This document shows positions 39,346 to 64,000 of a stretch of 64,000 nt of DNA, in pieces. Numbering within the stretch: position 1 is the first letter of the stretch; the number at the start of each line of letters is the position of its first letter. Origin of the DNA: Spirochaetia bacterium (lineage in GTDB: Bacteria > Spirochaetota > Spirochaetia > DSM-16054 > Sediminispirochaetaceae). The position numbers and the translations under genes were made by a program. Location: NCBI GenBank assembly GCA_034520965.1, contig JAXHMY010000003.1, positions 1 to 64,000 of the forward strand. The letters run 5' to 3'. Below the pieces are notes generated by a model. That model saw only the letters and a list, made by a program, of their open reading frames with translations. It was not told the origin of the DNA and did not search any database.

Positions 39346-40556
39346 TTAGTATAGAAAACCAAATAAATACAATGGGATTTCCTTTTTATTACCATAAAGA
39401 ATATCATCCTTTACTAAATAGGATTTATCTAGTTCTTTTTTTATCTGCTTTTTATCTTTTTTCTTTCCGCCTATTTCAAATATTTTATTATTCACTAAAA
39501 AATCCCCTACCTCATTATAATATATTTTATTCCCGGAGTTTTTTAACATTTTTATAAAAAAGATCTCTCTTATTGTTTTCATCTGTGCCTCATATCCTAT
39601 CTCTTCTATAATAGCGGAATATAAGTCCTGATTATCAAGATACATCTTTTCAGTATTTTTTAATAAATTGCTGCCTGCCTTATTCCTTTTTAGGAGTTCA
39701 ATCAGTCCCGTTTCATATAATATCATTAAGTAATTTTGTATAGTCTTATTATCCAATCCAATATTTTTTGAAATGCTATTTATATTTAGCTCTCCCGGTG
39801 GAATAGTGGCAAGATAAGATAAAATTCTTTTAAAATGAAATAAGTTTTCAGTTTTTAATTTATAGTAGTTCGATATATCTTCAAATATGACCTTTTCTAT
39901 CACTCTCAGTATTTTTTGATGATACTGTTCTTTATCTTCCAAGTAAAAAGGATAATATCCACTGTTCAAGTATTCTTTAAAATGCCCTTTGATTTTTTTA
40001 ATTGATGATAGATTGCTTTCTAGTTCGCTTCTATTTTCTAATATCTCTTTCAATGTAGTATTTTCCGTTTCATAAATGTCATTAAAAAGCAAATACTCGC
40101 GAAAGGACATTCCATCCATACGATACAATACACCTCGTCTGGATAAATCATAGGTGCCTTTAATCAGGTCAATACTCGAACTACCAGAAAAGATCAATTT
40201 AATATCAGGATACGAATCATAAGCATTCTTCAACTCTTGATTCCATCGAGCGTATTTATGGATCTCATCAAAGAAAAAATATCTTACCCCATAGTCCTCA
40301 TATAACTCATTTATAAAGTCTATAATGGTATTTTTAGAAAAATATATATGATCAACTGATACATAGATGCACTCATCCTTGTCCCTTATATTCTCTTGTA
40401 TATATTGTAGTAACAGAGTAGTCTTGCCAGTACCTCGTGGACCAATCAATCCAGTTAGACGACTATTGATATTGAACTCTTTATAGATATACCTGTGATA
40501 CTGATAATTGTATTCTCTAATAGACGCTTATAAGTAGCAATAAAATTTGTTAACAT
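39346..40556 (-). CDS. cassette: AAA_14-family ATPase (5' end frameshifted)
   Basis: GPRGTGKT, FFFDEIHKY, SGSSS, FEIGGK, IPLYLFGFLY; start approximate. Confidence 0.85.
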
Positions 40557-40758: not shown

Positions 40759-41460
40759 TCATTTTTTACTATTTTTTCTCCATATACCAGTATATTCTGG
40801 TACAATTTTCTTTTTATTCTTTAATATATTTTTTCCCATTTCTGCTCCAAAGAAGAACCCAATTGTTTCTGCTGCTTCTTCGTAATTCTTGAACTTAAAA
40901 TCTGTACTTACAATTGTATTCTCAAATCCATATTTGTTTTCTAATAGGTTATAGAAATATTTCAAAGCATTAGTATTTATTTTAGGTTCATTAACGTTTG
41001 TTCCCATAGTTTCAATTATTATTATTTCCCCTCCATTGATAATATTTTCATTTATATTCTTAATTAATTTTTCTGTTGTTCTTTTTATATTATTACTGTT
41101 TTCCACAATTGTGTGACCAAAACTCCAGCCCTCAATAAATATATGTGCTTTTTCTCTTATTACTGGAAGAGACTCATTATCTCCTACTTGTAGTATCATT
41201 CTATCTTTATACTTATTTAAATTTTCTTCACATTTCGAAAGCATATGATCTTCTTTGTCAAACCCATAGACTTTTTCTATTTTATCAATATATATTTTTG
41301 TTAATCTACCTGTTCCGATACCTGCTTCGTATACGATCTTTTTATTCCAATCAATATTGTTAACTAGTTGTTCGATTAGTATCCGCTGATAATCTTCTGC
41401 TTTAACTAAATTATCATATTCTTCAGCGTACTTTTTATATATTTCTTGCATTGTTGGCAT
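40759..41460 (-). CDS. cassette: class I SAM-dependent methyltransferase
   Basis: YEAGIGTGR motif I; YGFD motif II. Confidence 0.85.
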   Translation of the reverse strand: MPTMQEIYKKYAEEYDNLVKAEDYQRILIEQLVNNIDWNKKIVYEAGIGTGRLTKIYIDKIEKVYGFDKEDHMLSKCEENLNKYKDRMILQVGDNESLPVIREKAHIFIEGWSFGHTIVENSNNIKRTTEKLIKNINENIINGGEIIIIETMGTNVNEPKINTNALKYFYNLLENKYGFENTIVSTDFKFKNYEEAAETIGFFFGAEMGKNILKNKKKIVPEYTGIWRKNSKK

Positions 41461-41998: not shown

Positions 41999-42260
41999 TT
42001 ACTCATAATGTGTCCACATTCGAATTATCTTTACGATTCTCTCTTTTTCATACACCTGATATACTATACGGTGTTGGATGTTTATTCTTCGTGAAAAGGA
42101 TCCTGCTAAATCGCCTAATAGTCTTTCGTCAGGAAGGACATCTTCAATGGATCTCCCCTTTGAAGTGTATCGTATTTTCTCGGCGTTCTTTTTCGAATTC
42201 GACTTGCGTGATTTTTTTCGCATCTTTTTGTGCTTGTTTTGTATATACCAGTTTATACAA
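41999..42260 (-). CDS. yoeB: cassette: Txe/YoeB toxin (frameshifted)
   Basis: YKLVYTKQAQKDAKK...ERLLGDLAGSFSRRINIQHRIVYQV...IRMWTHYE. Confidence 0.85.
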
Positions 42261-42266
42261 CAGCCT

Positions 42267-42512
42267 TTACCACTCTATTTCTTCAGCACATTCGTCTATA
42301 TCGGCCTTCATCCCTTCTATTATTGATTCTCTCATACCCGGGATTGATGTAAGATACAATGTCTCTTCAATGTTTTTCCAATCTTCTTCGCTTATGATAA
42401 CCGCTGTTCCCTTCTTTCCGGTTATGTGTACCGGCTCATGAGATTCTATTACTTGTTCTATCAGTTTATACAAATCTTTTCTTGCGTTTGTTATGTTTAT
42501 TGTATTATTCAT
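42267..42512 (-). CDS. yefM: cassette: Phd/YefM antitoxin
   Basis: NITNARKDLYKLIEQV...HEPVHITGKKGTAVIISEEDW...ETLYL. Confidence 0.92.
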   Translation of the reverse strand: MNNTINITNARKDLYKLIEQVIESHEPVHITGKKGTAVIISEEDWKNIEETLYLTSIPGMRESIIEGMKADIDECAEEIEW

Positions 42513-42523
42513 CCTTACTCCTC

Positions 42524-42572
42524 GTACGTAATAACGTACTACAAATTTACCCTGATTTTTATGATCAGTCAA
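42524..42572 (-). promoter_or_regulatory. cassette-internal sigma70 promoter and operator of yefM-yoeB
   Basis: TTGACT-17 bp-TAAATT followed by the palindrome GTACGT-N4-ACGTAC before the RBS. Confidence 0.65.
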
Positions 42573-42616
42573 CAAGTATTTACTTAGTTATTTATTATTT
42601 TATTAGTTTGAACATA

Positions 42617-42751
42617 ATATAACGTTCACTTGAGATGCTTGGCGCTAACAGTATATAGCCCACTCACTTTAACCATTGTAACTCTACATTTCCAATTCAA
42701 AAATCTCTTTGCCATATTCACCGCCAGGTCAACTCCAAGTGGTTGTTATCC
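42617..42751 (-). repeat. attC site
   Basis: 135-bp consensus; R'' overlaps the stop codon of the upstream gene. Confidence 0.92.
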
Positions 42752-43048
42752 AGCAATTTTGTCTTTATCGACCAATTGCCCAGTTATATACTTATGAACA
42801 ACACTTTTTATAAATGTTTGATATTTTAATCCCTCTTTCGAAGCATATTCTTTTATCTTTTCAAGCTCATAGGGATCGATTCTAATATTCATTTTCTTTT
42901 CATTTTTCACAAACTCCCTTGCGGCTTCTTGGATTTTGTCCTGTTCTTCAGCTTTTGATTTTGACAGTGTTTCATAATCCAGCCCATCAATAGATTCTAT
43001 CAACTCTTTTTCTTCTTCATCTAAAAAATCAGTATCATATTTATTCAT
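42746..43048 (-). CDS. cassette: CopG/BrnA-like antitoxin
   Basis: KMNIRI...LEKIK..A..EGLKYQTFIKSVVHKY RHH pattern. Confidence 0.8.
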   Translation of the reverse strand: MNKYDTDFLDEEEKELIESIDGLDYETLSKSKAEEQDKIQEAAREFVKNEKKMNIRIDPYELEKIKEYASKEGLKYQTFIKSVVHKYITGQLVDKDKIAG

Positions 43049-43313
43049 AAGTTTCCTCCTCTATAAGGTACTTAAATTTCCTGTTTGGATAGATAGTCTT
43101 TAAAAACCATGTATCTCCCTCTACAACATAGGGAACACAGTATGCATAACCATCTATTTCAACAACCATTACTTTTTGATTTGAATATTTCTCTCTGTTT
43201 GGATTATCAAAATTGAGCAGTACACCCTTTTCAGCAATTGCTTCAATGACGTTATAGAAAATAACACCTCTTTTTTTTAAACAAGAGTATGTTCTTTTAT
43301 TGACTAAAATCAA
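43041..43313 (-). CDS. cassette: BrnT-like toxin (5' end damaged)
   Basis: PNREKYSNQK...YAYCVPYV...FLKTIYPNRK; overlaps the antitoxin start. Confidence 0.7.
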   Translation of the reverse strand: MILVNKRTYSCLKKRGVIFYNVIEAIAEKGVLLNFDNPNREKYSNQKVMVVEIDGYAYCVPYVVEGDTWFLKTIYPNRKFKYLIEEETYE

Positions 43314-46337: not shown

Positions 46338-46831
46338 AGCGCAGGTTCAAATGAAATTATATTTTATATATGCTTTTTGCATCCGATCAATTAGATTATT
46401 TATTAGGTTATTAACCACGAATGTTTTTCTTATACCTGCAATTTGGATAATTTGAACAACCATAAAATTTACCATATGGTCCATTTCTAACTAATAAATT
46501 TCCTCCACATCTGGGACAAACTAATGATCTTTCTTTTTGTATTCTTTCATAATTATTCTTATGTATCTGCTGCACATGTTCTTTTCTAGTATCTTTATCC
46601 AGGATATTTAATTTCGAAAGTTGATCTGAAATTATTTTTACTTCACTAATAGATAAGTTTTGTCTTATGCTTTTTCTTGCAATAATTTGAAAAAGTTCAT
46701 TATCATTGTCAGCAACGGTGATAAAGTTCCGGATATCGACGGTTTAAAAGTTCCGCTTTTACGACACAAATAAGGGCGGATAACCTATAGTGGGATTGAC
46801 CGAAAATACACCACAAAAGGAAACCGCCCAA

Positions 46832-48113
46832 ATGTGTCGAAAGGAAGATCGGATGCATATAGCTCGCATCCTGGCCAGAGAAGGCCACAGACAGAAAGAC
46901 ATCGCAGCACAGCTCGGAGTCAGTGACCGTATGGTACGAAAGTACCTGAAAGAAGACTTTGGAGCAAGAGCTCGAAAGAAGCGTCGCAGCATTCTCGAGC
47001 CGTTTCACCGAATAATCGATGAGACGATCGAAGAGAATCCCTACACCAACCTGGTGCTGCTGTATGAGCGGCTCAAAAGTCAAAGGTATGGAGGAGGGAT
47101 GACTATCTTACGGGACTATGCCCGAGGGGTCAGGGAGCAAGTGATCACCAAAAGCGGTGCTGCGCTTTGAAACCGAGCCAGGCAGACAAGCCCAGGTCGA
47201 CTGGAAAGAGTGTGGAAGCTGGCTTATCGAGGGGAGAATGCAGAAACTCTATGCATTTGTCATGCTCTTGGGCTACAGTCGACGGCCTTTCGTGCTGTTT
47301 ACCACCAACATGAGGCTCTCGACGGTGTTGTTGGCACATTTGGCGGCCTTTGCCTGGTTTGGAGCTGTGCCTTAGGAGATACTCTACGACAACATGAAAA
47401 CCGCCTGGCTGAATCAGGGCGGCAGTTGGATCGTAAATCCTGGGCTTCTCTCATCGGCCTCGGCCTGTGGGTTTACGCCTCTGAGGTGTAAGGTCCGCCG
47501 GCCTCAAACGAAAGGCAAAGTCGAGAGGTTTATCGGCTATTTGGCGCATAACTTTCTACCGAGAGTGGAGAATCGAGCCGGAACGACACTCGAGGAGCTT
47601 AACGGCGAGGTCGCCGATTGGCTTAAAGAGATAGATGCGCAGCAGATCGGCGGTATTCGCAGCACCCGTGCCGAGAGGTTTGCCGAGGAGAAGCCCTATA
47701 TGAATACCTGGGTACCGGAGGCTGCCCCCGATGTACGGGATATGGTGGGCCTGGTGGTCTCCAGGGAGGGGAAGTTGACCTATCAGACGAACCAATACAG
47801 TGTGCCTGCCGAGCATATCGGCCAAATGGTTACTCTGAAAATAAATACCCTCAACTACCGTTCTCAGGTATTCACTCAGGAGAATCTGCTGCTGCGTGAG
47901 TTTACCCTTTCGACAAAAGGGGCTCGGGAGATGAATATACGCAAGGAGGATACCGAAAGCCTCATAGAGCGTTGGAAAGCCGAACGACGGCCTACGGTAA
48001 AAAAAGCACCACAGGAGGTGACCGATCCGCAGATTCTTGATGAGCTAATAGCCACATCGGTGGAAACACGCAGTCCCGCCTGTTACGATCAGCTGGTAGG
48101 AGCGGCCTCATGA
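46832..48113 (+). pseudogene. istA: IstA transposase (frameshift near 47,150; in-frame TAG at 47,373)
   Basis: [30 protein letters not shown] motifs. Confidence 0.85.
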
Positions 48114-48874
48114 ATGCACTCAGCGAAACGGTAGGAACCCGTATGCAGGAGATGGGTCTGCAGTTCATGGCCGCCTCTCTGGAAAGTTATCTCGAAGAGC
48201 AGAGCCATAGTGACAAAACCCTTCTGCAGTCCCTTGCAGACCTGCTGGAGCTCGAATACCTTCCCCGCAAAGAGAGGGCTGCTCGCAGTCGCCTGAAGCT
48301 CTCGGGGATGCCTGCGGTAAAGCGGTTGGAGGACTTTGATATCTCCTGGCTCAAAGGGGGCCTGTCGGCCCGTCAGCTTGCCGAACTGTCCTCACTGAGC
48401 TTCATAGAGCGGAAAGAGAATGTGGTGCTCATGGGACCCAGCGGCCTGGGCAAGAGCCACCTTATGCTGGCCTTGGGGTACAAAGCGTGCATGACCGAGT
48501 TCACTGTCTGGTACACCAGCTGTATAGATTTGATCGAAGGACTTAAAAGGGCACGTGAACAGGGGCGTTTGAAACGCCGACTGACATGGCTGAAAAAACC
48601 GCATTTGATTCTTATCGATGAAGTCGGTTACGAGAATCTCTCGAAAGAAGAAGCGAACCTTCTCTTCCAAGTGGTCAATGCCCGCTACGAATATGGCAGT
48701 ATGATTCTCACTACGAATAAGGCTTTTGGTCGTTGGGCGGAGGTCCTGGCAGAGGAAGCTATTGCAACAGCCACCATCGACCGGCTTCTCCATCATGCAC
48801 ATGTGTTCAGCCTAAAAGGAGATTCATACCGGATGAAAGACCGGCTGAAAATCGGGGTCGTTGACCCTATGTAA
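48110..48874 (+). CDS. istB: IstB ATPase
   Basis: GPSGLGKSHL, IDEVGY, LTTNK, DRLLHH, GDSYR. Confidence 0.95.
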   Translation: MNALSETVGTRMQEMGLQFMAASLESYLEEQSHSDKTLLQSLADLLELEYLPRKERAARSRLKLSGMPAVKRLEDFDISWLKGGLSARQLAELSSLSFIERKENVVLMGPSGLGKSHLMLALGYKACMTEFTVWYTSCIDLIEGLKRAREQGRLKRRLTWLKKPHLILIDEVGYENLSKEEANLLFQVVNARYEYGSMILTTNKAFGRWAEVLAEEAIATATIDRLLHHAHVFSLKGDSYRMKDRLKIGVVDPM

Positions 48875-49531
48875 AACTATAAAAAGCGGAACCGCTACAC
48901 CGTTGAAAAGCGGAACTTTCTAAACCGCTGTTGACATTATCATAAACAACTGGAACTTGAGAAGTTACGTTTTTTAATTCTCCACTACCAACAAAAACGA
49001 TAATAGGATGATACGTTATATGTCTGAAATTCGAAAGAACTTCTTTTAATGCATATATATGGGACCAATTTTGTTTAATAGGATTCCTAAATTTATCTCT
49101 ACTTTTATAGAAAGTTTGAGTCCAATATTCTGTAATTCTCATTTCCATGTATCCAACCACTATAGTTCTTGGTTTCAATAACAAATATACCATATGTTGA
49201 AATAACAATATGATCTATTTGGCTACTTCCTTTACTTGTTCTTATAAAAATATTATTCAGAACTTTGTATTCTTTATCATCTAGTTTGTTTAATTGCCCT
49301 GCTATCCTTGATTCGCCTATGTGGCCCTTAATTTTTGGTTTATTTATCTTGAAAATGAATATCAAGATAATTGCGATTAAAAATAAAACTATATTCATAA
49401 TATGTTTACTCTTTTACTTTTAATTTGCAATAATTTCACACAACATCCTGTAGATAATGAATTTCATTATGTTATTTCTAATGCATCAATTATTTACCAA
49501 TAAACGGTATAATTAAATTATACATTGTGCT

Positions 49532-49674: not shown

Positions 49675-50759
49675 TCATTTCTTTAATAATTCATACAAAT
49701 CTCTATTAACATAGATTGTTTCTTTCCAAGATTTATATGATTCTAATATTCCTACTTCTTCTAACTGCTTTAGAATTTGCTAGCAGTTCTTCTTTCAGCA
49801 ATATTCTCATTTACTAAAAACTCAATTTTTGTGTACGGCTGTACAAATAATAATTCAATGAGTTCCTTAGAGTAAGTTGTTTTTGGCAGTTTTTCTTTAC
49901 ATAATTCTATAGACTTATTCATTAGATTCATTATTGAAGAAATTATCTGCAATGTATCTTTTGAAGTTTCTTCTACTGCTCTTAGCATAAATAAAATCCA
50001 TTTTTCCCATTCATTATCAGTTCTTACTTTTTGCAATAAATTGTAATATTGTCCCTTGTTTTTTATTATATAATCACTTAAATAGAGTATGGGGGTATCA
50101 ATTAAATTCTTTTGTACCAGATATAAAACATTTATTATTCTTCCTGTTCTGCCATTGCCGTCATAGAATGGATGTATCGATTCAAATTGGTAGTGTATAA
50201 TAGCCATTTTAATAAGAGAATCAATTTCGCTGTCTTTATTCATATAGCTCTCTAAGTTAGAAAGTAAATTCAATATTGTTTTCTCATTATCCGGTGGTGT
50301 GTATATCACCTCACCTGTTTGATCATTCATCAAACTTGTTCCAGGCAGTTTCCTAATGCCAGCATTATTTCCTTCTAAATCTTTTTGTATATTTAAGATC
50401 GTGTTTATACTCAGCCCACCTTTTTTGCTAAGTTCGTTATAACCGGTCCATATTGCTGATCGATAATTTAATACTTCTTTTGTTGCTGTATCGATTTTTC
50501 TTTCACTTTCTGCTAGCGCTTTATATATTTCATCCTGAGTAGTAATTATATTTTCGATTTCAGAGCTTGTTCTTGCTTCCTTCAATACTATGGAATTAAG
50601 TAATATGGTTTCATTTGGTAACAGAGAACAATAACCTTTTAACCTGGCAAGCTCTCTATTTGCTCTTATTGCTTGGTTCAGAATTTTCTTTGTTTCAATA
50701 TCAACCTTTGGAGGAAGATGAGGCAGATCGTTGTATGGTTCATTTTTACTTACGCTCAT
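49675..50759 (-). CDS. cassette: SoFic-like Fic protein (3' frameshift)
   Basis: N-terminal SSEIEN inhibitory motif; HPFYDGNGRTGR Fic motif; C-terminal HTH-like tail. Confidence 0.9.
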
Positions 50760-50818
50760 TTCATGTACATTATAACACATTCTTTGCTCATTACAAGCTT
50801 TTCATGTACATATCGTGC

Positions 50819-51103: not shown

Positions 51104-52775
51104 CCTAAATTCCGCAATTTTTATAACTATGTCGAAAAAAATAATTTCTAACCCTATATAAAGTAAAGAATAAAAAGGCAATATTTTTGTTGACATTTGC
51201 CAAAAACATAGTATAGTTATACTATGTTTACTATAGATCAAAAGGTAGGAAAATACACCTACGTATACGAGGTGCACAGCTATTGGGATAAAGAGAAGAA
51301 AGGTCCCAGGCAACAGCGTATTCGTATCGGTAAGCGAGACCCTAAAAGCGGAGAGTTTGTTAAGCTCGAACAAAAAAGACTAAGCCGCGAGTATGGCACG
51401 GTGTATCTGCTTGCATCGATAATCGAGCGTCTCGGACTCAAAGAGCTGCTCAGCGAAGAGTTTCCCTCAGAGGCTCGAGAGATAATTATCGCTGCCTGTT
51501 TTCAGATTTCTGAGCACCGCCCTTTTTACCTCTGTGCAAATTGGTTGGAACACATCTATCTGAGAGAACCGATTGAACTGTCTTCCCAACGTATTAGTCG
51601 TCTGCTCCAGGATATTGGAGAGGATGAAAGAGCGGTCTATCGCTTCTTAGATGAATGGACTGAAAGCCGAGAAGAGAATGAGTTCATCGTCTTTGATATA
51701 ACCAGCGTATCTACCTATGGGAAGGGCATTGACTTTGCCGAGTGGGGCTACAATCGTGACGGTGAGCGCTTGAGTCAAATAAATATTGGTATGGTGTATG
51801 GCGAGCCAAGCACCTTACCTCTTCTCTACTCCCTGTATCCCGGAAGCGTTCCAGATGTAGTGACCCTTAAGAATATGAAAAAGCGTCTTGAGCGAATTGC
51901 GAGCTTACGAGCACTGTTTGTGCTCGATCGAGGTTTCTATAGCTTGAAAAACCTTGACGAGCTGGAGAGTCTTGGCCCTTTTCTAATTCCTTTACCCATG
52001 AGTACTAACGCAGCCCGTGAGTTGGTAGGCTCTCACCGCTCGACGATAGGCTCACCGGATAACGCTTTTCAGATGGGAAAGCAGATATACTACAGCAACA
52101 GCGATGAGCTGTGCATGGGAGAGAATACTTTCAATGCGCATATCTTCTTTAATGAAAAACAAGCCTCAGAGGAGCGTGAAAAGCTAATGACTTTCCTGCT
52201 TACCGTAGAAGATCAGGTGGCAGGGAAAAAGTGGAGCACCTCGAAAAAGCTCATACATTTTCTCGAAGATGGTTTCCCAGGGTGGCAACACAGTTTTTCA
52301 GTAATAGAGGCCGAAGAGGGGTATACGGCTGCAAGACGAAAGGAGGCTATTAATGAGGCCTCAAAGCGCCAGGGAATTTTTATTCTTCTAACTAATACAA
52401 ATCTCACCGCAGAGCAGTGCCTTGAATACTACCGTAGAAAAGATGGAGTTGAGAAACTGTTCGACTCAATGAAACACGGAATAGATATGAAGAGACTGAG
52501 AGTGCACAGCAGAAAATCAGTGCAAGGGCTTTTATTTATAGAGTTCATCAGTCTCATTATATACTCGGAAATACAGCGGGTGCTTCGGGAAAGTGGACTT
52601 GGGAAGAAGCTTACAGTGGAGCAAATGTTGTATGAACTTAAAAAGTTAAGCGTTCTTGAAATTGACGATAAAAAACCAATGATCACTGAACTGACTAAAA
52701 AACAAAAGGATATATTCGGTGCATTCGAAATACCACTACCGATGCTCACATAGTATAAATTTTGCGGAATTTAGG
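51104..52775 (+). mobile_element. IS1634-family insertion sequence
   Basis: Inverted repeats CCTAAATTCCGCAA / TTGCGGAATTTAGG; 6-bp target duplication ATTTAC. Confidence 0.9.
51224..52753 (+). CDS. IS1634-family DDE transposase
   Basis: FDITSVS, GYNRD, DRGFYS, YRRKDGVEKLF (YREK) motifs; intact 509 aa. Confidence 0.9.
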   Translation: MFTIDQKVGKYTYVYEVHSYWDKEKKGPRQQRIRIGKRDPKSGEFVKLEQKRLSREYGTVYLLASIIERLGLKELLSEEFPSEAREIIIAACFQISEHRPFYLCANWLEHIYLREPIELSSQRISRLLQDIGEDERAVYRFLDEWTESREENEFIVFDITSVSTYGKGIDFAEWGYNRDGERLSQINIGMVYGEPSTLPLLYSLYPGSVPDVVTLKNMKKRLERIASLRALFVLDRGFYSLKNLDELESLGPFLIPLPMSTNAARELVGSHRSTIGSPDNAFQMGKQIYYSNSDELCMGENTFNAHIFFNEKQASEEREKLMTFLLTVEDQVAGKKWSTSKKLIHFLEDGFPGWQHSFSVIEAEEGYTAARRKEAINEASKRQGIFILLTNTNLTAEQCLEYYRRKDGVEKLFDSMKHGIDMKRLRVHSRKSVQGLLFIEFISLIIYSEIQRVLRESGLGKKLTVEQMLYELKKLSVLEIDDKKPMITELTKKQKDIFGAFEIPLPMLT

Positions 52776-53211: not shown

Positions 53212-53346
53212 GTATAACGTTCACTTGAGTTGCCTGGCGCTGTCATTCTATAGCCCGCTCTCTTTAACCATTGTAACCCCACTTTTGCAATTCAACAATT
53301 TCTTTGCCATATTCACCGCCAGGTCAACTCCAAGTGGTTGTTATGT
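53212..53346 (-). repeat. attC site
   Basis: 135-bp consensus; R'' overlaps the radical-SAM stop codon. Confidence 0.95.
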
Positions 53347-54126
53347 ACTTTTCTCATATATTATATTTCTATCTATAACAGCCATTATACTTTCCTTCCA
53401 CATTATATTTTTATTTTCTTTATTTCTTTTATAGAGATTCATAATGAAATCATCATTTAAAATTTCTATCAGTTTCAGAGCTTTAATATACTCTTCTGTA
53501 GACTTGTCATAACCATTCATTTTCAATCTACGCAATAGATAATTTGGTTTTCCAATCCAAATAGTTTCTGTAATGTAATTTTCAACTTCTTCAATAAGTG
53601 TTTCTATCTGATCATCTAACATTGGTTCACAAGATATACTTGTTTGATAACCATTTTCATATGCGTAAATAAGTGATTTTTTTCTTTCTAAAAATCTTGG
53701 TGCATATGGTTCCCAAAAACTTAATGTTTCATCAAATACTGAACCAATTGTAAAACGGAATAGTATTTTGTCTTTATACTCACTGAAAGTATCACAAATT
53801 CTTTTTATTACCTCTAAGTTTGGTTTTGAAACTAATAAGAGATATTTTCCATTTGTAAGAATATATTTTATAACCTCTATTTCTTCATCTATATATTTTT
53901 TTGATAAATCATGACTAGAAGGAAACATAATTGTACCAGTTTCCTTTGGTAACTTTATTTCATTAACTGTTTTTATCTTTTCCTCGAATTTCCAATTATC
54001 CCTGTTTTTCCTTTTAAACCTTATCGCCATTTCTTTACTGTAACAATATTTACAGTCATTCTTACAGCCATTTAAGATATTTACATTATGTGTCGCCCAT
54101 TCCAAAGTTCCAAATTTTCTTTTCAT
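53341..54126 (-). CDS. cassette: radical-SAM-like protein (DUF5131/SPL-like)
   Basis: EWATHNVNILNGCKNDCKYCYS (CxxxCxxC); ISCEPML, IWIG; start abuts the tcmP stop. Confidence 0.75.
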   Translation of the reverse strand: MKRKFGTLEWATHNVNILNGCKNDCKYCYSKEMAIRFKRKNRDNWKFEEKIKTVNEIKLPKETGTIMFPSSHDLSKKYIDEEIEVIKYILTNGKYLLLVSKPNLEVIKRICDTFSEYKDKILFRFTIGSVFDETLSFWEPYAPRFLERKKSLIYAYENGYQTSISCEPMLDDQIETLIEEVENYITETIWIGKPNYLLRRLKMNGYDKSTEEYIKALKLIEILNDDFIMNLYKRNKENKNIMWKESIMAVIDRNIIYEKST

Positions 54127-57100
54127 CTAAAGTAATAACTCTCTTTGTCCCTTATAGTTAATTGAATTGGCTTTTTTCCAAAACTCAATTCCAGTTTTGC
54201 TTTTAGAAGCAAAGATAATATCATAATAATGCTTAATAGGTCTATAATCGAATTTTGAATAACCTAAATTTCTTAAACTATTTTCATAGTACTTCCTGAA
54301 TAGTAGCCTTAATTCCTTATGTAGCCCTTTTTCAGCCATATCCATTGCTTCTTGATTTTCAAAAAAATCATTACTTCCAAGAAATGTTCTATATTTTGTA
54401 GAGTAGACATACTATCGCCTTCCTTCATTAAGAGAGTTACGACAGCATGCCCCTCCCAGAACCGTACGTGCGCAACTAACGCATACGGCTCCTAGCACTA
54501 AACATTCGACCATTGCCAGATGTCTTTGCAAATTCTCGGTCTTGGTATTAATTTCCATATCCTTTCAAACGTCTCCCAATTAATCTTGCGCTTCTGACCT
54601 CTACGCCTTAGAGCCTTATACAGCGTGTATCTGATGTATTTATAGAACTTGTACAACCCTTTCAGATTGCCATTGACCCCGTAGTAATTGTAGTGCCCAA
54701 CCAGTTTCCGGCTGAGTGCTCTCACAATCTCCATGACAGGTCGATGCATATTCCATCTAATCCACTGTTTTGCGCTCTCGCGTTTAGCCTTCAGCTTCTT
54801 CTTGCTAGTGAGGTGCAGGACTGTGTACTTACCAGTCCTCGTACTGGCATTCACGTGGGTGAATCCAAGAAAATCAAATGTTTCCTTGGTTCCTTTGTAC
54901 CTTCCAAACGGAATGATCCTTGTCTTCTCTTCGGCCACCGTTAGCTTGAACTTTGCAAGCCTTTTAAGCATCACCTCGTAGAATCTTTTCGCATCACCCT
55001 CGTACTGGAACAATACCACATAGTCATCCGCATAACGGTACAAGTATGCCTCACCCCTCAAATACCTTTTTGCTGACCTTCTCAAACCACAAGTCGAGTA
55101 CGTAATGAAGATAGACGTTAGCCAGCACCGGCGACAGAAGCCCTCCTTGCGGAGTGCCCTTGTCGCTGTCGCTGACATTCCCATTCTCCATGATCCCCGC
55201 CTTGAGAAATCTTACTACATAACGGATGAAATTCTTGTCCTGTATATCGTTCTCAAGAAACTTCACCAGCCATTCGTGGTCGACATTGTCAAAGAACCCT
55301 TTGATGTCGGCATCAAGAATATAATTTACCTTCTTAGTCATGATCGTTTGGTTTATTTCCCGTATCACATCATGACAATTCCGATTCGGCCTGAACCCAT
55401 AGGAACAGTCCAGAAACCTCGGTTCGTATATCTCAGTCAGCGCCTTCGCCATTATTCCCTGTACGAGTTTGTCCTCATACGCCGGGATTCCCAGCGGCCG
55501 TACCGTGCCGTCCGTCTTGGGTATATACGTTCTTTTAACCGCCTGCGGTCTGTAACTGAAGGATTTCATCCGTCCAAGCAATGCATCCACATGCTCTTCC
55601 AATCCGGTTTCATAGCTCTCCTTCGTCGCTCCGTCTATGCCTGCGGCTTTTCCTCTGACCTGCGCTCGATGCTCTGCCTTCAGGTTCTCCCTGTTGACAT
55701 AGTGTATGAGCGTCTGCATCTTCGCGTGACTCTCCGACAACCTCCTCAATTCCCCATAACTGTTTTCCACTCTCTCAGAACCTCCAGTGTTCCTGGTGTT
55801 GGTCACAAGAAATACGTTTAATGCCCAGACCCCTTCGCTCCACCGACTTTCACCGGTTTCATCGCTACTATGAGTCGTAAGCGCTTCACAAACACAGGGT
55901 TAAAAAACTAACCTGGGAAGTTCTGTGGCAGAAGTTTTCTCCAGTCGCCATCTGTTTCTGCGGAAATACATCCTGAAAGCACATATCTAAGGTATCCATA
56001 GGGATCCAATCCGTTTAGTTTGGCCGTTTCAATGAGAGAATAGAAGTTTGCACTTGCATAGGCTCCTCGTGGACTGTCACAAAACTGCCAGTTTTTTCGT
56101 CCGATTACGAAAGGCCGAATTGCACGTTCACTCACATTGTTGTCCGGAGTCAGAGCTTCATGATCGAGAAAATGGCTTAGTTTATCCCACTGGCCTCTGG
56201 CATATGCAACAGCTTTTCCTAACTGAGATGAGGGGGCAACATTGCTTTTCCTGCTGAGCCAGATAGAAAAATCTTCAAGTAAAGGTTCAATCGCCGCCCG
56301 CCGGGCTGCAAGAAATTCGGTTGCAGGGAGGTCTTCTCCCGCAGTTCTTTTTCTTTTTGGTAGATCTTTGCAATCTTGCTCACTGCCTCATGGGCCGCTC
56401 CGGTTTTCTTTTTCACCTTTGCCGCGTCAACAAACTTACGACGGATATGGGCCAGACAGGCTACATGCGTAATATCGCCGAAGCCTCCGATGTGACTGTA
56501 TCCTTCATACCCATCGGTTTGAAGATAACCGCGGAAAGAATGCAGATACACTTCGGGCACGTGTTTGCCTCGCGATGGGGCATAGAGATAGCGTACGATT
56601 GGCTTCTTTGGCATTCCCCCAACTGCTACCCACATGTAGGAGTTACTGCTGTTCTCTTTGTTTTGCTCCCGGTGGACCTGCACCCGGGTTTCATCCATAT
56701 TGATTACAGGCCCGGCGCGAATCTCATCATCGAACAGCTCGATCAGCGGCTCAAGTTTTTTGCTGGCTTTCATGATCCACCTTCCCATCGTCTCTCTGGG
56801 AATATGGATGTTCAGCCGCTCAAACATTTTCTCCTGCCGGTACAAAGGTAGGCTGTCGCAGTACTTCGCCGTTGCAATGTAGGCTACCAGGGATTCTGTG
56901 GCTATCCCCTTTTCAATCAGCTGCGGGGCAGCGGCTGCAGTGAGTATGGTGTGCGCATCTGCACTCTCATCTCCGCCTGTACTACATGCATAGGTGTGGC
57001 GAACCGTACGTTTGACCACAAACTGCGGTGGGCGAATCTCCAGCTTTTCGCTGATCTCTTCTCCAATACGCTGAAGAGTAAGCGCTTCACAAACACAGGG

Positions 57101-60100
57101 TTAAAAAACTAACCTGGGAAGTTCTGTGGCAGAAGTTTTCTCCAGTCGCCATCTGTTTCTGCGGAAATACATCCTGAAAGCACATATCTAAGGTATCCAT
57201 AGGGATCCAATCCGTTTAGTTTGGCCGTTTCAATGAGAGAATAGAAGTTTGCACTTGCATAGGCTCCTCGTGGACTGTCACAAAACTGCCAGTTTTTTCG
57301 TCCGATTACGAAAGGCCGAATTGCACGTTCACTCACATTGTTGTCCGGAGTCAGAGCTTCATGATCGAGAAAATGGCTGAGTTTATCCCACTGGCCTCTG
57401 GCATATGCAACAGCTTTTCCTAACTGAGATGAGGGGGCAACATTGCTTTTCCTGCTGAGCCAGATAGAAAAATCTTCAAGTAAAGGTTCAATCGCCGCCC
57501 GCCGGGCTGCAAGAAATTCGGTTGCAGGGAGGTTCTTCTCCCGCAGTTCTTTTTCTTTTTGGTAGATCTTTGCAATCTTGCTCACTGCCTCATGGGCCGC
57601 TCCGGTTTTCTTTTTCACCTTTGCCGCGTCAACAAACTTACGACGGATATGGGCCGAGACAGGCTACATGCGTAATATCGCCGAAGCCTCCGATGTGACT
57701 GTATCCTTCATACCCATCGGTTTGAAGATAACCGCGGAAAGAATGCAGATACACTTCGGGCACGTGTTTACCTCGTGATGGGGCATAGAGATAGCGCACG
57801 ATTCGATTCTTCCGATCCCCTCCAACTGCGACCCACATGTAGGAGTTGCTGCTGTTTTCTCTGTTTTGCTCCCGGTGGACCTGCACCCGGGTTTCATCCA
57901 TATTGATTACAGGCCCGGCGCGAATCTCATCATCGAACAGCTCGATCAGCGGCTCAAGTTTTTTGCTGGCTTTCATGATCCACCTTCCCATCGTCTCTCT
58001 GGGAATATGGATGTTCAGCCGCTCAAACATTTTCTCCTGCCGGTACAAAGGTAGGCTGTCGCAGTACTTCGCCGTTGCAATGTAGGCTACCAGGGATTCT
58101 GTGGCTATCCCCTTTTCAATCAGCTGCGGGGCAGCGGCTGCAGTGAGTATGGTGTGCGCATCTGCACTCTCATCTCCGCCTGTACTACATGCATAGGTGT
58201 GGCGAACCGTACGTTTGACCACAAACTGCGGTGGGCGAATCTCCAGCTTTTCGCTGATCTCTTCTCCAATACGCTGAAGAGGCGCTCCACAGTTACAGAC
58301 CCTTTGCTCTTCGGGCAGATCAATTTCGGTAGTCTCACGGGGTAGATGCTCAGGCAAAGGCTCTCTGCCCCCATGGCCCTTTTTCTTTACCCTCGTGTGA
58401 GCGGCCACCGGTCTCTCTTCGCTCTCCTCTTGCGGGGCCTCTGAGAGACATTCGGCTTCATTGAAAAGCAGTGCTTGTTTTTGCTCGACGGTATTTAGTT
58501 TTTCTGTTGATTTAGCAAAAAATCTGTTCAGGACAATCTGATACTTCTCTTCCAGCTGCTCGTAGGCCAGTTTTTGCTTGAGGTTTTCATTTTGCAGATC
58601 ATGTATCATCTGCTGCAGTTCATCTATGTCTTCCGGTAGTTGCTCCGGTCTCGCTTCTATACTCACAAGCCGAATTGTATCAGATCACTTATTTTTGTTC
58701 TAGACCCTAAGTCACTTTTGTGTACTCAAGTTCACGGTGGGCTTTCCAAATATTCAGCCCGTCGAGCAGCAGCCGCCACTGTCGAGCACTAATCTGATGT
58801 ACTTCATCTGCCTCCGTAGGCCAGGGGAAAGTATCTTGTTCAAGGCGTTTTTGCCATAGACAAAAGCCGTTGCGATCCCAGTAGATTGCCTTCATAAGGG
58901 TGCGTTTACGATTGCAGAAGATGAACAGTGCTTTTTGAAAAGGATCAAGCTCCATTTCTTCCTGCACCACTGCCGCCAGTCCGGCTGATTGCTTTCGCAT
59001 ATCGGTCGGTCCAGCTTTTACAAACAGCTGGACCTTTGACAGATCGAGAAACATTAGAGGTGCTCCAATGCAGAGACTACAGCCCGTAGGGTATCTGGAC
59101 TAAAATCCGGGTACACTTCGATGCGATAGTCATTAGGTAGTTCGATTTTAATGCTGGCCGCTTCTTTACTGCTGCTTGTGTGAGCACACTGTGCTGCTGT
59201 TAAGCTGACAGAGACAAAGCCCTGATCGGCGGTTCTCTTTTTATTTTGCAGCTGATTAAACCAACTGTAGAAGATATTCCGTTTTATTCCGATTTGCTGT
59301 GCATACTCGGTCTTGGTCAGGCCACTTTCTTTCCATAGTTCGATGTGCAGCTTCTTCTCTCTTTGGTAATTTTCATAGGCAGTCACTCCTTTTTCTGTTC
59401 TTATTTGGAGTTTCTGCTATTTTTCCTTTCCTGAACCAGACGGGGTTTGTGAAGCGCTTACTATGAGTCTGTCCGATTGCTGATGCCCCATATAGGTTTC
59501 TTGACTCTTCGCCTTTATGTCCCCTCTTAGTCCAACGGACAGGACATCAGCCCTCCCAGGTACGCTTGATCTACCTTGTGTGCTCGCCATGCTCTCAGAC
59601 CCCGTTGGGTTCTCGGCACTCTCGCCTTTTCCGAGTGCTTCTTGCTGGTTGCTGTCATATGAAAAACATCACCACCCAATCTTTATACTAACGAGGCTCA
59701 ATCACGTTCAACCTTTCGGCTTATGGCTCGCACACTCCTTTACCTACGCTTAAACCTCACCTCACGGCTTCGGCTCCAAGGCTAAGTACCGGCTGTTGGC
59801 TAGACTTTACCGGACAGGGTGTCTCACCCTGCTATATATCAAACGCCGAACTGGCGCACTCATATGATCTACTATACTTCTTTGGACTGTTAAAAACCCC
59901 TAGTATATTTCTATTGAAGTCAGTTCCTGAAGCAACATTAATAATAAAATCAACATTGTTTATTGTCTTAGATATTTCTTCTATTAAATTAAAGGGTACA
60001 CTACAATCTGTCGGATCAATAAATACAATGTTAAGATGGTCAGTAGGTATTTTTCTTTTAAGACATTACAAATTGTTTCTGGATGATAATAATCACCTTG

Positions 60101-60532
60101 TATAGCTTGTGCTTTTTCCAATTTATTATCTATAAATCTGTCATTTAGATTAGTGACTATTTCGTTATCAATATCAAAGAAAAGAGCATTTGATATATAT
60201 TTTAAATTTTTATGCTTACCAATAGCTAAAGGAGTACCATCTAGTTCAATTCCTGTATCTCTATTTACACATCTGCCAGGACCGCTGCAAATTTCAATAT
60301 AATTAAGTCCGTTCCACCGAATATGCATACCTTGAGAAAATATACCAAAATATTTCACTAAGTAGAATATTTTCTCTTCCGCCCAATCACCAACACATCT
60401 CACAGGCCTATTATCAATTGTAGATAAGGTCTCAACACACATATCATCTATGGTATAAGCTTTTCGGTCATTTTTATTACATTTCTTATAACAATTTTTG
60501 TTTTCAACTTTGTTTAGATCGAAACTTTCCAT
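54127..60532 (-). CDS. tcmP: cassette: TcmP-like (three-Cys-motif partner) methyltransferase-fold protein, split by a group II intron
   Basis: VGDWAEEKI, YIEICSGPG, GTPL, VFIDP, IIFASK motifs; exons 60532-59860 and 54397-54127 join in frame (..KYSRSYE|KYRTFLG..); extra frameshift near 60,055. Confidence 0.75.
54498..55806 (-). CDS. ltrA: group II intron reverse transcriptase/maturase (frameshift near 55,055; no endonuclease domain)
   Basis: RPLGIP, SYGFRP, DADIKGFFD, GTPQGG, YADD, FDFLGF; maturase GHYNYYG. Confidence 0.93.
55877..57077 (-). mobile_element. partial IS66 copy (3' part of tnpC plus terminal inverted repeat)
   Basis: Begins GTAAGCGCTTCACAAAC; near-identical to 57078-58279. Confidence 0.9.
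57109..58666 (-). CDS. tnpC: IS66 transposase (frameshift near 57,655)
   Basis: LPLYRQ, MDET, LQTDGY, DNNVSERAIRPFVIGRKNW motifs. Confidence 0.9.
58707..59054 (-). CDS. tnpB: IS66 accessory protein
   Basis: PTDMRK...LFIFCNR...YWDRNGFCLWQKRLE. Confidence 0.93.
   Translation of the reverse strand: MFLDLSKVQLFVKAGPTDMRKQSAGLAAVVQEEMELDPFQKALFIFCNRKRTLMKAIYWDRNGFCLWQKRLEQDTFPWPTEADEVHQISARQWRLLLDGLNIWKAHRELEYTKVT
59054..59386 (-). CDS. tnpA: IS66 HTH accessory protein
   Basis: WKESGLTKTEYAQQIGI...FYSW. Confidence 0.85.
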   Translation of the reverse strand: MTAYENYQREKKLHIELWKESGLTKTEYAQQIGIKRNIFYSWFNQLQNKKRTADQGFVSVSLTAAQCAHTSSSKEAASIKIELPNDYRIEVYPDFSPDTLRAVVSALEHL

Positions 60533-60548: not shown

Positions 60549-60683
60549 ACATAACGTTCACTTGAGTTGCCTGGCGCTGTTACGCAATAGCCCACTCTCT
60601 TTAACCATTGTAACCCGAGTTTCGCAATACAACAACTTCTTTGCCAAATAGTCCGCCAGGTCAACTCCAAGTGGTTGTTATGT
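60549..60683 (-). repeat. attC site
   Basis: 135-bp consensus. Confidence 0.95.
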
Positions 60684-60686
60684 TCA

Positions 60687-61384
60687 TTACATTTTACTTT
60701 TTATCCATATCCCTGTATATTCTGGTACAACTGCACTTTTACTCTCTAATACTTTATCTTTCATTTCTTCTCCAAAGAAAAAACTTATTATTTGGGCAGC
60801 TTCTCTATAGTCATTGAATTTATAATCAGTTTTAACAATAGTTTTTACAAACGCATATTCTTCTTCAAGCAAGCTATAGAATTCTATTAAATCAGTATTA
60901 TTTATTTCCGGATCTTTCACATTTGTACCAAGAGTTTCAATTAATATTTTCACACTATTATCAGTGGTTATCTGATTTATGTTATTTAACAGCTTTACAG
61001 TAGTACTCTGAATATCATTATTGTTTTCAACTATAGTGTGTCCAAAACTCCATCCTTCAATAAATATATGTGCTTTATTTTTTACCAAAGGCAAATTCTC
61101 ATTTTCACCAACATTCAAAACTATTTTATCTGAATATTTTTTTAAGTTTTTTTTACATCTATTTAGCATATGAGCTTCCCGATCAAACCCATAGAGCTTC
61201 TCTATTTTGTCAATATATATTTTGGAGAGACGTCCCGTACCGATACCTGCCTCATATACGATCTTTTTATCCATTCTATTCTATTTAATAGCTCTTCAGT
61301 CAAGTTGTTTTGATAATCTTCAGCGGTTACCAACTTGTCGTATTCGGTAGCATACTTTTTATATATTTCACTCATTTTCGGCAA
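60687..61384 (-). CDS. cassette: class I SAM-dependent methyltransferase, paralogue of 40759-41460 (frameshift near 61,272)
   Basis: YEAGIGTGR, FIEGWSFGHTIVENN, VPEYTGIW shared with the other copy. Confidence 0.85.
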
Positions 61385-61659: not shown

Positions 61660-62471
61660 TCAGTTATCTAATTTTAATAATTTATTAGCATACTCAGATC
61701 CATGGTTTTCACACCAATATGTTTTCATGTAATACGCATTATTAAAATCGAAGTTTTTATTATCTTTCAATGATAATGATTGCCATATATCTTTTTCTCA
61801 CCAGTATAGGTACCGTTTTCACACCCACAAGACTTAAGTGCATAATCAGATTTTAATTCTTTATAATATCTATCTGAAACCATTAACTGTCCCTTTTCTG
61901 TCAAACTCGCTAATTTTGCAGCCATATTCACTGGCTTACCTGCCCATACTTCATTTCTTCTATCTGATCTATTATTCTTTTGCCTTAAACCTATTTTTTT
62001 TACTAATACAGTCTTTTTATCTATTCCTATATGTACACCTAAATCCAATTTACTTCTTTGCTTATATAAAGGAATAAAAGATTTTTCTACAAATGTTTTT
62101 ACAGTAACAGCGGATACAAGCGATCTATAAATTTCATTTTTATTAAATAATGCAAAAACGCCATCACCCTGCACTTCGACATATGAAGCATCATAAAAAT
62201 GAAAAATTTTTATTATTGTACCTGTAAATAATTCATATGCACTGGCAGTGCTCGAATCATATTTTTGTTCTGCAGAAAGTCTTGTTGAACCAATCATATC
62301 CGTATATACACATATTACATCATTTATCTTGAGCCATTTATTTCCTTCTTTTGGAATATTATTTGTGTCTGGAATGCTGTCAATTATATCAATATTATTT
62401 TTCTGATTAAACAGTTCTATTTGTTCGTTTATTTTATCTAAAATACCTTTCGGTAGTTGTTTTTCATCCAT
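61660..62471 (-). CDS. pycC: cassette: Pycsar pyrimidine cyclase (3' frameshift)
   Basis: YTDMIGST, QGDGVFALF, HIGID, VWAGKPVNMAAKL class III cyclase motifs; adjacent to a TM effector. Confidence 0.8.
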
Positions 62472-62481
62472 ACTAATATCC

Positions 62482-62987
62482 CTATAACAAAATTGTTAAA
62501 AAAGTTAATATCAAACCAATTGTAAATATGCTAATTGCAATATTAAATGCTCTAAATTTTTCTAAAACAATATTTGATAGTGTATAAATCTGCTTTGCTA
62601 TATCTTTTTCTTCTTTATTTAATTCTTCATTATTAAAATACTCCCTCTGTATTATTTCAATAAATTCATCCTTAGTTTGTATGCAAGCTATATCTGAAAA
62701 AAGAAATAAATTTGGATTTGATACAATTTTTCTGCGTCTTGCATAGATCTGTTTTGTTTTAGGTATCATACTTAACAGACTAATCAATAGTGATAATATT
62801 AATAATATAATACTTTATAAAAAAATATTAAGCTATCATTGTTGTATAATAATCTCTGGCTTTTCAGAAACCCAATTAATGCAATTACAAAACCTATTAG
62901 TATTGTGTTTTTACTTTCTGCATATTTAATTAAATTTTGCAAATTCTCAAAATTTGTTATTAATTTACTTATCTTGTCCATTATCAT
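62482..62987 (-). CDS. pycTM: cassette: Pycsar transmembrane effector (frameshift near 62,800)
   Basis: IKYAESKNTIL + TM; NLFLFSDIA; KQIYTLSNIVLEKF + TM, matching the DUF5706 layout. Confidence 0.8.
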
Positions 62988-63150: not shown

Positions 63151-64000
63151 TGCAGAATCCGGACCAATCCGGACACCAATTCCGTTTCAAAACGGACAGT
63201 CATTCCGGCGCAAAGCGGACACCGATTCCGGGAATAAACGGACAGTTTTTTTGCTGACGCCGGAATAATTTACGGTAAGAACAATCCTCGAAAAGTCGCT
63301 ACACTTCTGCTCAAACATACAATAAAGCAGGAGTACTATGGCACGAGCGAGGATTACTATGAGACAGCTACGAAAGATCTTGGAATACTCCCTCGAGAGC
63401 AGGCTGAGCCTGCGTGAGGTTGCTACGCTCACCGGAGCATCCAAGACTACCATCAGTGAGTATCTGGCCCGCTTCAGGAATAGCGGGATTACTTATCAAG
63501 ATAGTTTGACGATGTGCGATCAGCAGCTGATCGAACTGTTCGAAGAGAAAAAGGAGGCAGAGAGCGAAGCTTACAAAGCTTTGGTTGCCCTTTTTCCCGC
63601 CTATGAGGTGAAACTGAAAAAGAAAGGCATGACTCGGCAATTGCTTTGGCAGGAGTACCGCAGAGCTCATCCTGAGGGGTATCTCTATAGCCAGTTTTGC
63701 CATCACTTGAGAACATGGAGGGACAGCCTCGATGTAACAATGCACCAACACCACGAGCCTGGCGACAAAGCTTTTCTCGACTACACCGGTACGAGGTTTC
63801 CCTACTGGGATCGAGAGGGCGGAGAGCAGAAGAAGGCTGAGGTGTTTGTTGCCATTCTCGGAGCAAGTGGGCTGACCTATGTGGAGGCCAGTAGGAGTCA
63901 GGAAAAGGAGGAGTTTGTTCGATCCACCGAGCGAGCACTTCTCTACTACGGCGGTGTCCCCCGTGCCTTGGTGCCGGACAATCTCAAAAGCGCCGTAAAG
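63151..64000 (+). mobile_element. IS21-family element (second type), truncated by the window end
   Basis: TG start; tandem CGGACA...ATTCCG subterminal repeats; istA follows. Confidence 0.88.
63338..64000 (+). CDS. istA: IstA transposase (partial)
   Basis: MRQLRKILE HTH; LLWQEY; MHQHHEPGDKAFLDYTG; VPDNLKSAV. Confidence 0.9.
   Translation, partial: MARARITMRQLRKILEYSLESRLSLREVATLTGASKTTISEYLARFRNSGITYQDSLTMCDQQLIELFEEKKEAESEAYKALVALFPAYEVKLKKKGMTRQLLWQEYRRAHPEGYLYSQFCHHLRTWRDSLDVTMHQHHEPGDKAFLDYTGTRFPYWDREGGEQKKAEVFVAILGASGLTYVEASRSQEKEEFVRSTERALLYYGGVPRALVPDNLKSAVK

Follow-up and report, generated by a model that had tools for sequence, protein, structure and literature searches.

Why does a group II intron, itself split by a block of IS66 insertion sequence (IS), lie in the middle of a gene carried on an integron cassette, and what directed it to that site? 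The question is raised by the 64,000-nucleotide stretch of spirochaete DNA analysed here (the window), which corresponds to C3:1-64000 of assembly G000 (9 contigs, 86% complete). The interrupted gene belongs to the tcmP family. The nest as such is ordinary piling of mobile elements that likely knocked out one cassette gene; what is new is the proposed target rule of the intron lineage rather than the nest. The site is explained by a -10-like box 11 nt upstream of the insertion, a feature that a preliminary description of the locus had missed. We regard it as probable that a promoter-targeting lineage of class E introns hit a promoter look-alike in tcmP and that IS66, landing later, likely stopped splicing and with it tcmP expression.

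The intron runs on the minus strand from GTGCG (59859) to CTCTAC (54398), the borders proposed earlier, and without the IS it measures 1,869 nt, as had been stated. A search of the genome for intact copies, suggested in the preliminary description, returned an IS-free copy with an intact reverse transcriptase (RT) gene (C1:529614-531482) and a second IS-free sister whose RT frame is broken as assembled (C2:355469-357338), both outside the integron array. The sister sites lie 4 nt into start codons, at ATG A|AT.. of lepA and ATG A|GT.. of a NarL-type regulator (genes named from their translations), and TATAGT is found 10-11 nt upstream of the insertion at all three genomic sites. In 15/15 intron-free lepA orthologues of the family, TATAGT precedes the ATG by 7-8 nt with no Shine-Dalgarno flag, and two intron-free lepA orthologues contain the exact empty site. 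Among first ATGs of the host, boxes peak at a spacer of 6 (70/2,046, 3.4%, vs. 0.8-2.4% at other spacers); the usual distance between a -10 box and the transcription start is 6-7 nt. The sister sites look like leaderless promoters, which would place the intron at +4 of the transcript. The DNA of 60 relatives contained no close copy of the intron, the best match being 70% identical. The window copy differs from its sisters by 55 and 63 substitutions, the sisters from each other by 17, and the window RT from the C1 RT by 28 silent and 11 replacement codons; these substitution counts suggest that the window copy is a separately evolving variant that was disabled recently. Two further sites were encountered: a contig of run X21 (guessed to be an RNA run), matched to window 59820-59864, displays another subfamily site ending in TAGGGT-N6-ATGA, and a YCDD-clade intron (L088) lies in the lepA 5' leader of a clostridial genome, a second lepA target.

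Is the box peculiar to this genome, or does it mark the sites of a wider lineage? Relatives were represented by 80 RT loci from species genomes (the best 80 of 146) and 43 metagenome loci; the 5' end could be called in 100/126 loci, including the three own copies, and seven loci with less than 18 nt of flank as well as duplicate sites were left out. Of 69 unique sites, 39 have a -10-like hexamer whose end lies 8-12 nt upstream of the insertion, compared with 9.5/69 expected from shifted windows and 17.2/69 from shuffles. By group, the box occurs at this distance in 7/9 sites of the own subfamily, 8/15 of the near group, 14/18 of the YCDD clade and 10/27 of the other metagenome loci, where 20/27 sites have it at 8-20 nt; in the outgroup of other class E-like introns the count at 8-12 nt is 0/12. 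TG precedes the box in 25/57 sites vs. 65/862 in the same flanks, and a -35 match is present in 16/56 sites vs. 112/862. In 19/29 evaluable loci, the first 60 nt behind the site include the start of a gene, and 4/29 sites lie deep in an open frame. Start-codon targeting, considered as the rule, had to be widened, since at L023 the exon ends in ATGA| but the gene starts downstream, and most relatives lie in leaders. At locus L127, the intron 3' end is followed by 7 nt (ending ATGA) and then by an intron 5' end, an arrangement that may reflect two copies in tandem or a circle that includes additional exon bases, and the YCDD-clade introns L070-L101 appear to end in AG, not AY.

Another important question is whether the intron itself can read such a box. 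At the tcmP site (all features on the minus strand), the box TATAGT (59871..59876), located by site comparison 11 nt before the insertion, is the predicted intron-binding site 2 (IBS2), and IBS1, delimited by its pairing with exon-binding site 1 (EBS1), is ATATGA (59860..59865), which contains an out-of-frame ATG. Alignment and covariation place EBS1, UCAUAU, at 59657..59662 and the EBS2 loop, AGUAUA, at 59684..59689. This EBS1 6-mer (59662-59657) is the intron sequence whose pairing with the exon end had been noticed before, and it matches IBS1 at 6/6 positions; in the C1 copy, EBS1 is UCAUGU and the exon end GCAUGA. EBS2 pairs with TATAGT at 5/6 positions, with one G.G. EBS3, a U at 59597..59597 (intron nt 263), was identified by column pairing, its column pairing with the first base of the 3' exon in 35/38 introns. 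Across the relatives, EBS1 tracks the last exon bases, with UCAU for ATGA and UCCU or CUCC for Shine-Dalgarno motifs (0/5,000 permutations). EBS2 scores higher against its own site than against permuted ones (5.76 vs. 5.25, 0/5,000, n=56; outgroup 224/5,000), and matched changes of site and EBS2 occur in L092 (TGTAAT/AUUACG), in L096 and L099 (TATACT/AGUAU) and in L083 (TATGC/GCAUG).

In the mechanism that we propose, the intron ribonucleoprotein would pair EBS2 with the -10 box, and EBS1 and EBS3 with the first transcribed bases, and would reverse-splice there. The boxes would be working promoters and the normal 5' exon just 3-5 nt long. Being upstream of the start, IBS2 would never enter the RNA and would therefore act on DNA alone, in line with the dispensability of EBS2-IBS2 for splicing of the class E intron Cl.be.I2 described in the available part of PMC3753933. 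The position behind a promoter would secure transcription of the intron: group II introns have no promoter of their own according to the accessible text of PMC12584367, and with an RT that lacks an endonuclease, landing behind a -10 box would thus secure expression and perhaps single-stranded target DNA. In tcmP, the insertion would have occurred at the look-alike TATAGT-N7-ATGA within the cassette gene. More tentatively, and with slightly less than even confidence, we suggest that EBS2 has turned into an anti-promoter guide throughout a widespread class E lineage, which reverse-splices 3-5 nt into the transcript on promoter DNA opened by RNA polymerase; in its sub-lineages, EBS1 would be adjusted to different targets, namely leaderless AUGA starts, Shine-Dalgarno motifs or plain 5' ends, and tcmP would be an off-target insertion that shows how little sequence the rule requires. 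The sub-lineage in the window would be tuned to AUGA starts, its 5' exon being 4 nt long and its domain VI supplying a spare ribosome site and ATG.

Several observations weigh against promoter targeting. The 8-12 nt window and the EBS2 loop columns were picked after the data had been seen, kin are non-independent, 30/69 sites are without a box at 8-12 nt, and in the Shine-Dalgarno-type group the spacing is 11-20 nt. AGUAUA would pair 6/6 with TATACT, yet all three genomic copies lie at TATAGT, and 12 TATACT-N6/7-ATGA gene starts in the genome have no intron; in the own subfamily, each of the seven boxes found at 8-12 nt carries G as its fifth base, which the protein may read, and inspection of domain I by eye revealed no perfect partner of TATAGT. 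The tcmP site lacks TG and has a -35 match of 1/6, which indicates that a full promoter is not needed, and a sigma70 scan of the stretch gave nine sites vs. 12.5 expected, the TATAGT box not among them. The rival explanation is ordinary class E retrohoming through EBS1, EBS2 and EBS3 pairing alone, in which the promoter pattern arises later, because copies behind a promoter are the only ones to be expressed, to spread and to be tolerated, and the state of a promoter is not sensed. This explanation shares the pairing with promoter targeting and differs solely in the need for an open promoter. It agrees with the box without TG or -35 at tcmP, with the non-promoter sites to which EBS2 is paired in L084, L146, L150, L052 and L036, and with the window copy being the best overall match of the three (EBS1 6/6). 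It does not readily account for the fact that in many members EBS2 has become anti-TATAAT and has its pairing partner 8-20 nt away, the usual range being -7 to -13, nor for the roughly six-fold enrichment of TG, which lies mostly outside the paired stretch; we consider it possible, though rather unlikely. A tie of the intron to the integron, either through attC-directed insertion or as a switch for a defence cassette, seems barely credible. The intron does lie in an array of 24 attC sites with intI, and its cassette is weakly similar to PDC-M41A/B, but the nearest attC is 691 nt away, the intron has cassette orientation, its RT is of class E and both sister copies are outside the array. The integron link looks incidental.

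Exon 1 of tcmP (59860..60532, minus strand) was recognised by TIGR04474 (E 1e-7, below the cut-off on the piece) and by alignment, and exon 2 (54127..54397, minus strand) by reading frames and alignment; the separate pieces score 32.2 and 15.5 bits against a cut-off of 53, and the uninterrupted homologue P0001 scores 96.2. Removal of the intron rejoins tcmP at YE/KY, as claimed earlier, and the junction reads SRSYE|KY and aligns without a gap. The joined product (intron removed, X at one break) is gap-free over 314/314 aa against P0001 (61% identity) and gap-free against P0002 (60%). Uninterrupted homologues align across the junction: within 15 aa on either side, 77/119 have no net length difference and 26/119 are 4 aa shorter. 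The statement that the frame is restored exactly holds for the junction but not for the gene as assembled, as exon 1 contains a second break, overlooked before, a one-base frameshift at T runs near 60050-60059, after which the frame stops at 59984, before the intron. It is likely an assembly error.

The intron itself has the features of its group. Domains V and VI are present with the AGC triad, already seen in domain V by the preliminary description, and a bulged A, together with GUGYG...AY ends and EBS1-IBS1 pairing, and the suggested Rfam check gave 120.6 bits with RF02005 (domain I) and 48 bits with RF00029 (domains V-VI). The 5' part (59462..59859, minus strand; domains I, II and the start of III) is found by RF02005 and is 97.7-98% identical to the sister copies; the 3' part (54398..55876, minus strand; the rest of III, IV with the RT, V and VI) follows from Rfam and sister alignment. 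The RT-maturase (54498..55770, minus strand; ~423 aa, YADD motif) is matched by TIGR04416 on both its pieces, and its 423-aa open reading frame (ORF) runs up to domain V without an endonuclease domain. Its frame break at 55075 is likely an assembly error: the base is absent from the contigs of all four metagenome runs compared with the window (X1-X4), including one low-depth X2 contig with the window copy's own letters. The likely start is GTG 55770, behind GGAGG, the longest-ORF start being GTG 55806; the RT starts at intron nt 497, with no 300-700 nt 5' insertion. RT phylogeny, proposed earlier as a means of classification, places the protein in class E (clade support 98 with the disrupted pRmeGR4b RT, 42.6% identity), separate from RmInt1-like class D, Sr.me.I2 (g1), B.th.I3 (g2) and Ni.ha.I1 (g3), in a quick tree of 42 rows without g4-g6, U1-U3 and CL1 references. 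Its single class E reference is this pRmeGR4b RT, called class E in the accessible passages of PMC5894124 and taken as S.me.I4 from a paper's description. All trees were quick trees, and three short RTs were left out.

Domain VI contains GAAGGAAGG and an ATG (54408..54426, minus strand), a spare ribosome site and start. The ATG lies 13 nt before the intron end, in frame with the hosts at the C1 and C2 sites and out of frame for tcmP (33 codons); in the near clade, its frame is open for at least 90 codons in 10/18 loci. These signals would rescue genes hit at the start codon, not tcmP. The same GAAGGAAGG/ATG words occur by chance in AT-rich tcmP, out of frame, and for this reason only splicing could save that gene. 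That the intron was at first silent through splicing, as suggested before, is plausible because EBS1 pairs at 6/6 positions, EBS3 is paired and the C1 copy has an intact RT, and it holds only if the frameshift in exon 1 is an assembly error.

How the IS66 block altered this situation can be read from its structure. The full IS66 (57078..59461, minus strand; 2,384 nt; Pfam TnpB_IS66, DDE_Tnp_IS66 and zf-IS66) has tnpA, tnpB and tnpC, terminal inverted repeats and an 8-bp duplication, and is 98% identical to a copy on C7 that has its own 8-bp duplication. A partial IS66 of 1,201 nt (55877..57077, minus strand), recognised by element comparison and contig depth, consists of the 3' part of tnpC and the right end. 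The nest cassette > tcmP > intron > IS66 > IS66 described previously is real in its outer levels, but the last step is no clean nest: the block (55877-59461) has two right ends, one left end, a single outer 8-bp duplication and no inner one, as would be expected if recombination had collapsed an originally nested insertion, or after a one-ended event. The duplication, TATGAGTC, lies at 59462..59469, at the base of domain III, and again at 55869..55876. It corresponds to intron nt 391-398, where the basal stem of domain III has its 5' strand and AUAGUA begins, and the IS splits both this stem and the AUAGUA loop, which bears out the earlier placement in domain III. The invariance of AUAGUA arises from the selection of rows (33 distinct sequences among 44), four of which caught another motif. 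The distance of about 70 nt upstream of the RT start applies to the longest-ORF GTG 55806 alone and becomes ~100 nt from the likely GTG 55770. The proposed history is supported, in which the intron entered the cassette gene and IS66 came after it, since the IS carries a duplication within the intron and both sisters are IS-free. With the AUAGUA loop and the basal stem both interrupted, and in view of the role of domain III in group II introns, the IS likely stopped splicing, and so tcmP expression. In a separate case, relative L036 has entered another group II intron, in what resembles its domain III, behind the motif CATAG, also struck by IS66 in the intron of the window. The three IS66 copies differ in clustered substitution patches (window 57770-57861; C7 copy), which reflect either gene conversion or assembly polishing that drew on reads from related elements.

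Could the nest have a different history or effect? If the exon-1 frameshift is real, and it could be, tcmP was already dead, and the intron and IS piled up in neutral DNA where splicing is irrelevant. The assembled frame does stop at 59984, no contig of the compared runs covers the place, and core genes of the assembly have few frame breaks (8 frame changes in 58.5 kb, 5/76 frames). Such an early death of tcmP nevertheless appears quite unlikely, as the break lies in a homopolymer, contigs contradict eight indels of the assembly close by (55075, 57656, 59359, 59389, 59433, 59626, 61270 and 61461), and the 314 aa of the joined product are otherwise unbroken. A slightly more serious alternative, though still unlikely, is that the IS-bearing intron continues to splice, the duplicated 8 bp re-forming domain III after the IS and the C1 copy, which encodes an intact RT, supplying the maturase. 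The second duplication retains GACUCAUAGUA, with 5/7 basal pairs, and terminator-like sites were not found on the minus strand of the stretch; against this, 3.6 kb part J2/3 from domain III or split the AUAGUA loop either way, and, judging from group II architecture, translation of the IS transposase would run through the intron. Run X21, guessed to be RNA, yielded four contigs and no exon join, which favours neither view. That the partial second IS66 is a misassembly is very unlikely. The region has many assembly indels, the junction contig has just 29 letters on one side, under the 31-letter rule, and a 95-nt variant patch of the full copy is absent from X1 and X2 contigs; the pieces listed for the compared runs bridge neither outer junction of the IS. 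Contig depth is 13.3 over the duplicated part, 8-10.7 over the remaining IS and 5.0 over unique DNA, which fits 3:2:1 copies; X1 may be the source sample, and this evidence is not independent.

The intron thus interrupted lies in a cassette flanked by attC sites, one preceding it (60551..60684, minus strand; nhmmer 141.8 bits, long hairpin fold) and one closing it (53214..53347, minus strand; 145.5 bits), with the tcmP-family gene and an intact radical SAM partner gene (DUF5131-like; 53341..54126, minus strand; Pfam Radical_SAM E 8.7e-8, DUF5131 below cut-off) as its content. The cassette is weakly similar to the PADLOC candidate PDC-M41A/B (E 8e-8 and 2.9e-6), and in protein P0044 (587 aa) TcmP is fused to the radical SAM partner. 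The array extends from ~39 kb, with 24 attC-like matches at C3 39293-78208 (nhmmer profile of window repeats), and an intI-like gene, split into two frames that both score below the TIGR02249 cut-off, follows at C3:80037-80989. Extra attC-like sites in G000 comprise four on C8:1328-5189 and single ones at C2:425970 and C7:187695. Other cassettes of the array include Pycsar (window 61767-62987, minus strand; PycC cyclase, E 1e-91, and a PycTM effector whose frame is split in two as assembled), further defence-like cassettes (window 49770-50780, 39346-40449 and 41999-43313, minus strand) with SoFic (E 2e-111), a PDC-S01-like AAA ATPase and small gene pairs that by their translations resemble toxin-antitoxin cassettes, and two related methyltransferase cassettes (window 40759-41460 and 60687-61384; DNA 72-77% identical), the second with a frame break at 61270 that contigs contradict. 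Two IS21-like elements and a DDE_Tnp_1 element with inverted repeats also lie within the array (46723-48919, 51104-52775, 63158-64000). The nearest RT relatives are Spirochaetaceae and Sphaerochaeta records (91% and 82%) and the best matching sequencing runs for the window are salt-pan and microbial-mat metagenomes, from which the host is likely a free-living spirochaete.

What would the target rule add to known specificities? Homing sites, terminators and attC are the three named in the available part of PMC4424553, and an IIB1 (CL1) lineage at start or stop codons (Avi.groEL, EcKTE56.groEL) is a further one in the accessible text of PMC12584367; promoter targeting, if true, would stand beside these. 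Promoter or leaderless targeting by group II introns was not found in the literature searched, most subscription papers lying outside it. The rule offers a use for EBS2-IBS2 pairing, conserved yet dispensable for class E splicing as far as PMC3753933 could be consulted; it predicts that 5' exons of 3-5 nt suffice for splicing, lets insertion sites mark where transcription begins in uncultured bacteria and points to a tool that could be directed at promoters.

The intron shares with class E introns an RT without an endonuclease domain, EBS1, EBS2 and EBS3, and GUGCG...AC ends; it differs in that the partner of EBS2 is a -10-like box located 8-20 nt upstream, and a promoter preference was not found in the class E literature in the parts available. 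The IS66 block is typical in its tnpA-tnpB-tnpC order, GTAAGCG ends and 8-bp duplication, and unusual in its tandem partial duplicate with a single left end. The contrast drawn in the preliminary description with IIC introns at attC was right in that this intron is non-IIC and inside a cassette ORF, but such introns in integrons are nothing special, because they have been published and two of the three copies lie outside the integron: the accessible passages of PMC7923331 report UHB.I2 (CL1) and H.ha.F1/F2 (class E) in halophile integrons. Those introns are likewise non-IIC and in cassette arrays of hypersaline habitats, UHB.I2 also in cassette orientation, whereas the present intron is full length, lies inside an ORF with exact frame and has sister copies that reveal the target rule; the same passages give BPROM-predicted promoters upstream of introns and no EBS2-promoter pairing. 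With the IIB1 (CL1) lineage, it has in common insertion at or next to housekeeping start codons (lepA here), but its RT class is other, in a tree without a CL1 reference, the 300-700 nt 5' insertion is absent, and the shared feature is the promoter box, most relatives lying in 5' leaders or Shine-Dalgarno motifs. Like class C (IIC) introns, finally, which may occur in integron arrays (available parts of PMC4424553 and PMC7923331), the lineage is aimed at a class of host signal. The site in tcmP is neither an attC bottom strand nor a terminator, and the intron has cassette orientation, an AGC instead of a CGC triad, an EBS2 and a class E RT; class C introns aim at the ends of transcription units, and the lineage in the window at their starts.

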